Source: a virus
Taxonomy: Duplodnaviria > Heunggongvirae > Uroviricota > Caudoviricetes
Reading direction: 5' to 3' (one strand)
Length of the DNA: 58,013 bases
IMG/VR virus record: IMGVR_UViG_3300045988_029198
Coordinates: 1-58,013 of that record
Both the position numbers and the translations under genes were made by a program. Shown piece by piece: positions 2,766 to 4,220 of this stretch (the stretch's first letter is position 1; every line of letters begins with the position of its first letter). Below the pieces are notes generated by a model, which saw only the letters and a program-made list of their open reading frames with translations, was not told where the DNA came from and searched no databases.

Positions 2766-3105
2766 TTACAGTAAGATGGATGATAGAGATATTGATCGCC
2801 TTGTTTTGAAAGTTATTTACGGTGTTCATGCTGACTATAAAGATATCCAAGGTTGTTGGTCACGGGGCGGTTTCAAATATACCACTAATCCGACTGACGC
2901 AATGCCGATTATTATTGAAAATAAAATTAGTATTGTTTCAACAGATTCATCGTGGATCGCTTTACCTGACAATGCTGCTATTGATGGAATTACTGGTGAT
3001 GCGACAGAAATGATTTATACGGATGACTCATGTGTTATTCACGCTAACCCACTCCGTGCCGCAATGATTGTGTTCTTACAGATGCAGGAAAACAACCATG
3101 ATTAA
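2758..3105 (+). CDS. hypothetical protein
   Basis: ORF track 115 aa; start overlaps upstream stop (ATGA coupling). Confidence 0.45.
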   Translation: MNDYSKMDDRDIDRLVLKVIYGVHADYKDIQGCWSRGGFKYTTNPTDAMPIIIENKISIVSTDSSWIALPDNAAIDGITGDATEMIYTDDSCVIHANPLRAAMIVFLQMQENNHD

Positions 3106-3448
3106 ACTCTGTTACATTGCCGGGCCTTATCGTGCTGATTGTGCGCTTAAAACATCCCGTAACGTGTCGCGCGCTGAACAGGCAGGTAAACGACTTGCTT
3201 TACAACGTCCGGGGTGGTTCCCGGTTATCCCTCACAAGAACACCGAATTGTGGGACTTTGACGGCGGTTTACGCAATATACAACCCGAATACTACTTGTC
3301 AGGCACATTAGAAGTTATGCGCCGTTGTGATGCCGTTCTGGTACTTCCTGATTATCGTCGTTCGTCCGGGACTATTGCGGAAATTGCAGAAGCTGAACGT
3401 CTGGGTATTCCTGTGTATTACAGTGTGGAGAGTATCCCACATGGTTGA
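3098..3448 (+). CDS. nucleoside 2-deoxyribosyltransferase-like protein (DUF4406-like, SLOG superfamily)
   Basis: Internal ATG at codon 11 of track ORF 3068..3448 with AGGAA upstream; YIAGPYR N-terminus and SGTIAEIAEAERLGIPV glutamate motif resemble NDT-like fold. Confidence 0.5.
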   Translation: MIKLCYIAGPYRADCALKTSRNVSRAEQAGKRLALQRPGWFPVIPHKNTELWDFDGGLRNIQPEYYLSGTLEVMRRCDAVLVLPDYRRSSGTIAEIAEAERLGIPVYYSVESIPHG

Positions 3449-4220
3449 TGTTAAGTTATTTAATCAAGATTGTTTGTTCATGATGAACTTCATTACTGAA
3501 AAATCTATTGATTTAATTCTTACAGATCCTCCGTATGGTACAACTGCTTGCAAATGGGATTCGATAATAGATTTAGATTTAATGTGGTCAAATTTAAATC
3601 GAATCATTACGGATAAAGGAGCGATCGTTCTTACGGCAACACAACCATTTGCAAGTATTTTAGTAAATTCAAACATCAAAATGTTTAAATACGATTGGGT
3701 GTGGAATAAATCAAAACGAACTGATTTTGTAAGAGCAAAACTAAAACCAATGGGTGGTCACGAAAGCGTTTTGGTTTTCAGTAAAGGTTCTGTTGCGAAT
3801 GGTGCATCTTCAATGATGAACTATTACCCACAAGGTTTGAAACGTATTAATAAAGTAGCTAAAAACGGCGGCGGTGGTTCTGGTTTTTTGGGTCGTAATG
3901 GTGAAAATTTAGGACCAAATAACAAGCTACACAAACCTACGTATATTCAAGAATTTACAGGATACCCATGCACTCAATTGAATATTCAGAGTGAGAATAA
4001 AACAGTTCATCCCACGCAAAAACCTGTAGAGTTAATGGAATATCTTATTTTAACTTACACAAAAGAAGGTGATACGGTTTTAGATTTCACAATGGGTAGT
4101 GGAACAACAGGTGTTGCTGCCGTGAAAACTAATCGTAATTTTATCGGTATAGAGTTAGATAAAGAATATTTCGAAATTGCTAATAAACGTATTAATTTGG
4201 CATTGATGGGTATTTACTAA
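3441..4220 (+). CDS. DNA methyltransferase, N6-adenine/N4-cytosine type (beta-class)
   Basis: ATG at codon 39 of track ORF 3327..4220; catalytic DPPY near N-terminus, SAM-binding VLDFTMGSGTTG near C-terminus; gene is AT-rich relative to neighbours. Confidence 0.8.
   Translation: MVDVKLFNQDCLFMMNFITEKSIDLILTDPPYGTTACKWDSIIDLDLMWSNLNRIITDKGAIVLTATQPFASILVNSNIKMFKYDWVWNKSKRTDFVRAKLKPMGGHESVLVFSKGSVANGASSMMNYYPQGLKRINKVAKNGGGGSGFLGRNGENLGPNNKLHKPTYIQEFTGYPCTQLNIQSENKTVHPTQKPVELMEYLILTYTKEGDTVLDFTMGSGTTGVAAVKTNRNFIGIELDKEYFEIANKRINLALMGIY

Follow-up and report, generated by a model that had tools for sequence, protein, structure and literature searches.

An exchangeable DNA methylase cassette overlaps a conserved NDT-like gene in a 9NA-like siphovirus

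When two phage genes of different kinds share their ends, do their products work together or do the genes merely lie together? The question arises in IMG/VR virus record IMGVR_UViG_3300045988_029198, whose 58,013 nucleotides (positions 1 to 58,013, here called the window) are the 58-kb genome of a 9NA-like (Sashavirus/Nonanavirus) siphovirus. On the plus strand, a 116-amino-acid protein resembling nucleoside 2-deoxyribosyltransferases (NDTs) is encoded at 3098..3448 (ATG 3098, TGA 3446-3448) and a 259-amino-acid DNA methyltransferase at 3441..4220 (ATG 3441, TAA 4218-4220). The two genes overlap by the eight nucleotides ATGGTTGA (3441..3448, +), which hold the start of the methylase gene and the stop of the NDT-like gene and form the left edge of a cassette that is swapped among related phages. 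A sequence-only reading of this DNA had placed both open reading frames (ORFs) and their overlap exactly here and had offered two explanations for the pair, a joint base-exchange or modification step and an acquired anti-restriction cassette. We believe that the second probably applies to the methylase alone, and that these are two adjacent genes with independent histories: an orphan anti-restriction methylase cassette and a gene for a separately acting nucleotide N-glycosidase.

The methylase gene sits in a slot whose content differs from phage to phage. Our survey of this slot covered nine relatives from GenBank and seven close, complete loci from IMG/VR. Its flanks are well kept: among the GenBank relatives the upstream NDT-like gene has 90-97% amino acid identity, and the conserved 77-amino-acid ORF that forms the right boundary of the slot (4236..4469, +, in the window; PHROG 25980) has 86-100%. 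Between these flanks, a 259-amino-acid PF01555 protein is encoded in the window, in Klebsiella phage Carvaje and in the contigs L010 and L098. Its place is taken by a Dam-type enzyme of 173-179 amino acids (PF05869) in AVIO78A, PDP46, Bas82, PJ16 and BDX09P1, and by PF01555 proteins of 360-517 amino acids with large variable inserts in 9NA, Sasha, Kpn BU9 and the contigs L011-L015. The short and long PF01555 types have the cofactor-binding core alone in common. A more distant contig, L017, whose NDT-like protein is 68% identical, carries a 246-amino-acid Dam-type enzyme in the slot.

The boundaries of the exchange can be placed closely. Similarity is lost from the methylase start codon onwards and comes back just upstream of the ATG of the 77-amino-acid ORF. 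All slot methylase genes begin within the final codons of the NDT-like gene, overlapping it by 8 or 11 nucleotides (nt). Upstream of that start, GTGGAGAG is found in the window and in both Carvaje and PDP46; Kpn BU9 and 9NA have close variants of it, and its conservation is independent of which methylase comes next. Methylase type differs even among very close relatives, whose flanking genes, where they align, are 95-97% identical in nucleotide sequence. In PJ16 and BDX09P1, the Dam-type methylase gene is directly followed by a 146-amino-acid macro-domain ORF (PF01661, 9e-20; 34% GC), located at 4605-5045 in the PJ16 locus (L006) and at 4721-5161 in that of Sashavirus BDX09P1 (L009); its product may reverse ADP-ribosylation.

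The present occupant of the slot was recently transferred. When the window is compared with Carvaje, nucleotide identity is 97.9% for the methylase gene but 61-85% for the flanking genes. Synonymous divergence (dS) in the same comparison, from which the misaligned polymerase was left out, is 0.092 for the methylase as opposed to 0.79 for the NDT-like gene and 1.15 for each of the two flanking ORFs. Since the methylase dS is about ten times below that of its flanks, the cassette is about ten times younger than its surroundings. The two methylase genes differ by 14 synonymous and 2 non-synonymous changes, and the methylase is therefore still under selection. Together with the non-orthologous methylases found in relatives, the low dS fits the acquired cassette of the sequence-only reading, which had also remarked on the AT-richness of the gene. 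Composition bears this out and marks the gene as foreign: the methylase has 33.7% GC and 25.8% GC at third codon positions (GC3), compared with 43.3% GC for the window and 48.7% for the NDT-like gene. Its GC lies in the lowest 2% of the 780-nt windows of this genome and its GC3 is the fourth lowest among 60 genes of at least 100 amino acids (z = -2.0); the other very AT-rich genes are T5orf172/GIY-YIG-like mobile ORFs. The methylase was not found in the chromosomes and plasmids of 5426 complete E. coli genomes, and so a donor was not identified. It belongs to a very large family carried mainly by phages (1511 phage records and over 7981 proteins at E<=1e-30), and the nearest non-identical copies, with 72-77% identity, are in a Klebsiella phage and an uncultured phage of similar synteny.

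The enzyme is of the DPPY N6/N4 type, as had been read from the sequence. It matches Pfam N6_N4_Mtase (PF01555) at 2.4e-33 (116.4 bits vs a cut-off of 26.7) and PHROG 67 at 2.4e-72. Motif IV, D-P-P-Y, is read directly at residues 29-32 (3525..3536, +), and motif I, F-T-M-G-S-G, at residues 216-221 (4086..4103, +), where it aligns to the S-adenosylmethionine (AdoMet)-binding regions of 5hek and 6pbd. Motif I thus follows motif IV on its C-terminal side, the order of the beta class, and the same arrangement of DPPY followed by a C-terminal FxGxG is found in M.MboIIA, M1.HpyAVI, CcrM, M.RsrI and the PHROG 67 orphans. The target-recognition region, in contrast, can be aligned to no characterised enzyme. 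The best matches in the Protein Data Bank (PDB) are an M1.HpyAVI/DpnA-type enzyme (6.7e-20), CcrM (3.7e-19) and M.MboIIA over its full length (3.4e-18); adenine enzymes score from 6.7e-20 to 1.4e-12, compared with 1.7e-10 to 1.9e-7 for N4-cytosine enzymes. These scores and the DPPY motif favour adenine, and the enzyme most likely acts at N6. No nuclease domain was found by Pfam or PHROG in the neighbours of the methylase, here or in any of the relatives examined. As no cognate endonuclease was found beside it, we regard the enzyme as an orphan methylase rather than part of a type II restriction-modification system.

The NDT/SLOG-type fold suggested earlier for the 3098..3448 product is likewise upheld. 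The protein matches Pfam DUF7768 (6.6e-9; 36.4 vs a cut-off of 26) and DUF4406 (5.3e-7; 30.4 vs 22), as well as PHROG 355, 'nucleoside 2-deoxyribosyltransferase', at 3.8e-26; NCBIfam gave zero matches. An AlphaFold2 model was obtained with a pLDDT of 96.3 and a pTM of 0.89. Eight of its nine best Foldseek matches in the PDB are NDTs or DUF1937 (probability 1.00, TM 0.58-0.67). The best matches include the NDTs 6evs, 2a0k, 6qai, 8pqq and 1s2l as well as 1t1j, a DUF1937 structure, and are followed by DNPH1 and two CMP N-glycosidases, MilB and BcmB. Sequence matches to PDB chains are marginal (E 0.09-0.25), and the fold assignment therefore rests on structure prediction and Foldseek. By this model, membership of the NDT superfamily, with its flavodoxin-like alpha/beta fold, is confirmed.

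Conserved residues point to the likely chemistry. Across an alignment of 53 homologues, Y6, G9, R12, N22, P45, H46, R75, R76, C77, D78, S89, G91 and E95 are invariant or nearly so, E95 and S89 being invariant and Y6 and D78 at least 90% conserved. Y6, D78 and E95 align weakly to the Tyr, Asp and Glu of the T. brucei NDT 2a0k (Glu in G-T-A-F-E), and S89-x-G-T-x-x-E95 aligns weakly to S-P-G-T-H-I-E of BcmB (4jen). The superfamily uses a Glu as covalent nucleophile in a triad completed by Tyr and Asp/Asn, and in enzymes that take 5'-phosphorylated substrates small uncharged residues replace the Asp that binds the 5'-OH; DmtZ, a phage NDT-family enzyme acting on deoxynucleoside monophosphates, has a Tyr/Asn(Asp)/Glu triad and an uncharged 5'-phosphate pocket (PMC12884076). 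From the homologue alignment, Glu95 (codon 3380..3382, +) in S89-x-G91-T-x-x-E95 is the predicted nucleophile of the window protein. Its invariant Ser89 stands where the 5'-OH-binding Asp would be and therefore fits the nucleotide-specific class (DNPH1, MilB/BcmB, DmtZ), so that the protein is probably a (deoxy)nucleoside 5'-monophosphate N-glycosidase.

With DNPH1/Rcl, MilB/BcmB and DmtZ, the window protein has in common the fold, the Tyr/Asp/Glu positions and the Ser in S-x-G-x-x-x-E. Unlike DNPH1, MilB and DmtZ, it has the family-specific invariant residues N22, H46, R75, R76 and C77. With 116 amino acids it is without the C-terminal segment of the NDTs, and its sequence resembles those of solved structures marginally. 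The Lactobacillus-type NDTs (PF05014) give its best structural matches and have the catalytic Glu in common with it but, unlike these, the window protein has Ser for Asp at the 5' pocket, is much shorter and scores below the family threshold. Strong purifying selection acts on the gene (dN/dS 0.04-0.06 at dS 0.8-1.0), which belongs to the core genes of 9NA-like siphoviruses. Homologues were counted in 215 phage records, Chi-like phages included, and the family counts 16361 cluster representatives at 50% identity, mainly phage-borne, with 287 confirmed viral-contig matches. Immediately downstream of some distant homologues lie genes for nucleotide-pool enzymes (dGTP_diPhyd_N, DNMK).

How would such a slot be expressed? 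The genes from the polymerase to the NDT-like gene form one same-strand array with overlaps. It comprises the DNA polymerase gene (333-2189, +; PHROG 1252 at 1.3e-214), a 178-amino-acid ORF between polymerase and NDT-like gene (2229-2765, +), the NinX/DUF2591 gene (2758-3105, +; Pfam Phage_P22_NinX) and the NDT-like gene itself. The pair had been described as lying next to the polymerase; it does belong to the same array, but the two small genes intervene. Synteny from polymerase to pair is kept in Carvaje, AVIO78A, PDP46, 9NA, Sasha and Kpn BU9, and Proteus phage Isfahan keeps the order of polymerase, NDT and methylase with different small ORFs in between. A Shine-Dalgarno-like GGAG, read directly at 3427..3430 (+), lies inside the NDT coding sequence, within its conserved 3' end and 10 nt upstream of the methylase ATG, and from the type of overlap we infer translational coupling. 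A hairpin at 3423-3442, covering GGAG and the methylase ATG, was considered as evidence of coupling and dropped: its stability is no better than that of shuffled sequences (z = -0.69), and it was not found in the phages with Dam-type inserts.

Based on these observations, we propose the following model. The array, from the polymerase to the 77-amino-acid ORF, would be transcribed as one early or middle unit. Ribosomes ending the NDT-like gene would reinitiate at the overlapping ATG, aided by the upstream GGAG. As the slot offers a Shine-Dalgarno element and a start codon within the 3' end of the NDT-like gene, anything inserted there would be synthesised along with the replication proteins. 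The gene now in the slot came recently from an AT-rich gene pool, and its product would modify adenines in a short motif on replicating phage DNA, blocking the restriction enzymes that match this motif, while recombination at the slot would shift the spectrum of protection. The NDT-like enzyme, independent of whichever methylase occupies the slot, would cleave the N-glycosidic bond of free (deoxy)nucleoside 5'-monophosphates and so shape or sanitise the nucleotide pool.

A number of points weigh against this model. Orphan phage methylases usually serve anti-restriction, and for the window methylase this role is assumed. The enzyme did not reach an NCBIfam equivalog cut-off, neither that of CcrM nor that of YhdJ, and most solved methylases align to it at the cofactor core only. 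Contig L098 (ENA ERZ27275576 k141_34609, 4001-4781), which is otherwise near-identical across the pair, has T7 where the window has T6 (3884-3889), and this change splits its methylase into ORFs of 152 and 115 amino acids; the gene may be dispensable and really inactivated there, or the assembly may be in error. Phage Bas82, whose NDT gene is 97% identical and whose slot holds a different methylase, is reported to be markedly sensitive to the restriction-modification systems tested (PMC11990801), and any protection conferred from the slot must therefore be narrow. As for the NDT-like protein, it misses the gathering threshold of Nuc_deoxyrib_tr (PF05014; 17.5 vs 28.8 bits), our literature searches on DUF4406, DUF7768 and DUF1937 found no functional study, and two phage NDTs from unmodified contigs were without transglycosylation in vitro (bioRxiv 10.1101/2025.10.22.683976).

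Moreover, the adjacency of NDT-like gene and methylase is old. It is present in Proteus phage Isfahan and in a lineage represented by the contigs L094-L097 (Logan SRR334712xx), and an arrangement of such age lends some plausibility to a functional link between them. The L094 lineage has a divergent NDT-like ORF at 3654-4004, which hhalign relates to that of the window with a probability of 98.6% at 29% identity and which is without R12, H46, S89 and G91. The overlapping methylase gene at 4001-4777 is a copy 77% identical to that of the window and has 37.8% GC, compared with 46.9% for its genome. The uncultured phage represented by these contigs has an Enc34-type single-stranded DNA-binding protein and a 705-amino-acid ORF at the polymerase position. 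Convergent lysis genes and a tailspike lie downstream, a layout as in 9NA-like phages.

Could the NDT-like protein itself act against host defences, destroying immune signals derived from nucleotides, or toxic nucleotide analogues, by N-glycosidic cleavage, with an anti-defence hotspot downstream of its gene? Domains with the SLOG/NDT fold are found in defence systems, where they bind nucleotide signals; the SLOG domain of ThsA is an example. The slot does gather genes of anti-defence type, with three kinds of methylase and a macro domain, and the NDT-like family is very large and mostly phage-borne. However, the NDT-like gene belongs to the core set, lies in the replication module and is under strong purifying selection, whereas typical anti-defence genes turn over fast, and NDT homologues elsewhere adjoin ordinary DNA-metabolism genes. 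We therefore regard a counter-defence function as unlikely. We are similarly doubtful of a wider version in which the NDT-like enzyme is tied to the slot, either supporting any methylase placed there, for example, by cleaving S-adenosylhomocysteine, an inhibitory product, or being itself a counter-defence N-glycosidase; in the latter event, 3098-4235 would be a dedicated anti-defence locus of 9NA-like phages.

The joint step would make the two proteins a single functional unit for modifying DNA or exchanging bases, with the NDT-fold enzyme making or swapping a base or nucleotide for the methylase to modify, or the reverse; it draws on that same adjacency. The overlapping arrangement is kept throughout the 9NA supergroup, including Gorganvirus and the lineage with the 29%-identical ORF. 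In 14 of 75 loci with an NDT homologue, the next gene downstream encodes a DNA methylase from one of four Pfam families, and 7 of the 14 lie beyond the close relatives. In addition, phage NDT-family enzymes do join genome-wide base replacement in Z-genome phages (PMC12884076). These base-replacement enzymes, DmtZ and the dZ-phage NDTs, work alongside PurZ-type genes (PMC12884076; bioRxiv 10.1101/2025.10.22.683976). In contrast to the DmtZ system with its Z-genome genes, neither PurZ-type (adenylosuccinate-synthetase-like), DatZ nor MazZ families nor other hypermodification genes were seen among the 25 of 48 Pfam families listed for the 93 window ORFs, and none of them is annotated in the first 80 of the 98 genes of the collinear phage PDP46 (1-50,000).

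Given that the partner is swapped for non-homologous enzymes (PF05869 vs PF01555) while the NDT-like gene is hardly altered, that no NDT-methylase fusion was seen among the best 150 family representatives, where a few long proteins (802-940 amino acids) carry neither a methylase nor another informative domain, that Chi-like phages and most of the distant NDT homologues are without an adjoining methylase, that elsewhere the methylase lies two to three genes off or upstream, which points to a shared DNA-metabolism module rather than a fixed pair, and that Bas82 is reportedly restriction-sensitive with a 97%-identical NDT gene, we consider it quite unlikely that the two proteins act jointly, and this half of the sequence-only reading is not supported. 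The NDT-family enzymes characterised so far act on free nucleosides or nucleotides, and we know of no action on polymeric DNA.

A methylase may also serve the phage's own biology, as does the Dam enzyme of P1 at pac, and the slot enzyme might accordingly act in replication timing, packaging or expression rather than in restriction evasion. A constant need is suggested by the presence of a methylase at the slot in every 9NA-like genome examined, and the enzyme would be expressed with the replication genes. Such a role, however, needs a constant recognition sequence, whereas the occupants belong to different families with different or variable target-recognition regions and very close relatives carry different methylase types. 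The frameshifted copy in the sibling contig L098 also argues against it, and we give this explanation little credence. Finally, that the AT-richness of the methylase reflects amino acid composition or chance instead of foreign origin can be dismissed: the protein is, on direct reading, rich in Lys, Asn and Ile, and some native genes also have low GC3, but the bias extends to the codon level, in the closest relatives another gene occupies this position, the 77%-identical copy of the L094 lineage is likewise GC-poor for its genome, and the contrast with Carvaje in both identity and dS rules it out.

The favoured reading, of an exchangeable methylase beside an independent enzyme, makes the locus ordinary phage anti-restriction mosaicism and not a new DNA-modification pathway. 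Both genes are of known kinds and the pair is already annotated in GenBank relatives. Carvaje (OL604152) has the same pair in the same order and with the same 8-nt overlap, as gp63 (DUF4406) and gp62 (adenine-specific methyltransferase), with 99.2% amino acid identity for the methylase and 92% for the NDT-like protein. Carvaje differs in genus and host (Carvajevirus, Klebsiella), whereas the overall closest relatives of the window, E. coli Sashavirus/Nonanavirus phages, carry Dam-type enzymes. The slot resembles moron or anti-defence hotspot sites in its conserved flanks, gene-for-gene replacement, foreign composition and anti-defence cargo. Unlike these, its cargo is almost always a methylase, whose start codon is built into the upstream gene and which has no promoter of its own.

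Recombination of an orphan methylase into a permissive, pre-wired expression site beside a widespread small enzyme would be routine phage biology. Nevertheless, the 9NA-like phages provide a natural series of near-isogenic genomes with different methylases, with or without the macro domain, which could be used to map the restriction systems that each defeats. The substrate of DUF7768/DUF4406, once defined, would annotate thousands of phage genes.

The wider genome places this phage among relatives from several hosts. A megablast search with 2229-4469 gave E. coli Sashavirus/Nonanavirus phages at 95-97% identity, yet with 51-64% query coverage, and Carvaje at 88% coverage and 88% identity; the Salmonella phages 9NA, Sasha, Sergei and Solent ranked after Carvaje. 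IMG/VR contig L010 and ENA contig L098 are 99-100% identical to the window across the pair region. The tailspike gene (5869-8868, +) encodes a full K1 endosialidase (End_beta_propel 5.5e-233) with an N-terminal Tail_spike_N domain. The host is therefore E. coli K1, the domain content of the tailspike indicating that the host range of this 9NA-like phage is specific for the K1 capsule.

A number of restriction palindromes are strongly avoided across the whole window: AAGCTT occurs 0 times vs 17.6 expected, CAGCTG once vs 10.2 and GTCGAC twice vs 10.2, and GGCC is found at 0.31 of expectation. These counts suggest passive restriction avoidance on top of the methylase. As a clue to the methylase target the site counts were rejected, as the avoided palindromes give no pointer.

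Two AT-rich ORFs, at 20130-21101 (+) and 28514-29437 (+), are paralogues with 45% identity that carry CapR and T5orf172/MUG113 (GIY-YIG-like) domains; their domains suggest homing-endonuclease-like mobile genes, and a third T5orf172 member is present in the window at a position that was not assigned. A 135-amino-acid ORF at 26748-27155 (+), also very AT-rich, is without a Pfam match. All three placed ORFs have 30-34% GC and lie on the opposite strand within the structural-gene block. A second SLOG-superfamily protein, of 131 amino acids (YAcAr/DUF2493; PF10686, 1.7e-19), is encoded in the early region at 48185-48577 (-). At 30926-31561 (-), a 211-amino-acid ORF matches Pfam DUF6378 (1.4e-7), its PDP46 counterpart being labelled 'nucleotide modification associated domain 1'. 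It is divergent to an ORF at 31669-32175 (+), which stands at the position of the annotated dUTPase of PDP46; a dUTPase family, of the ordinary kind, is among the Pfam matches of the window.

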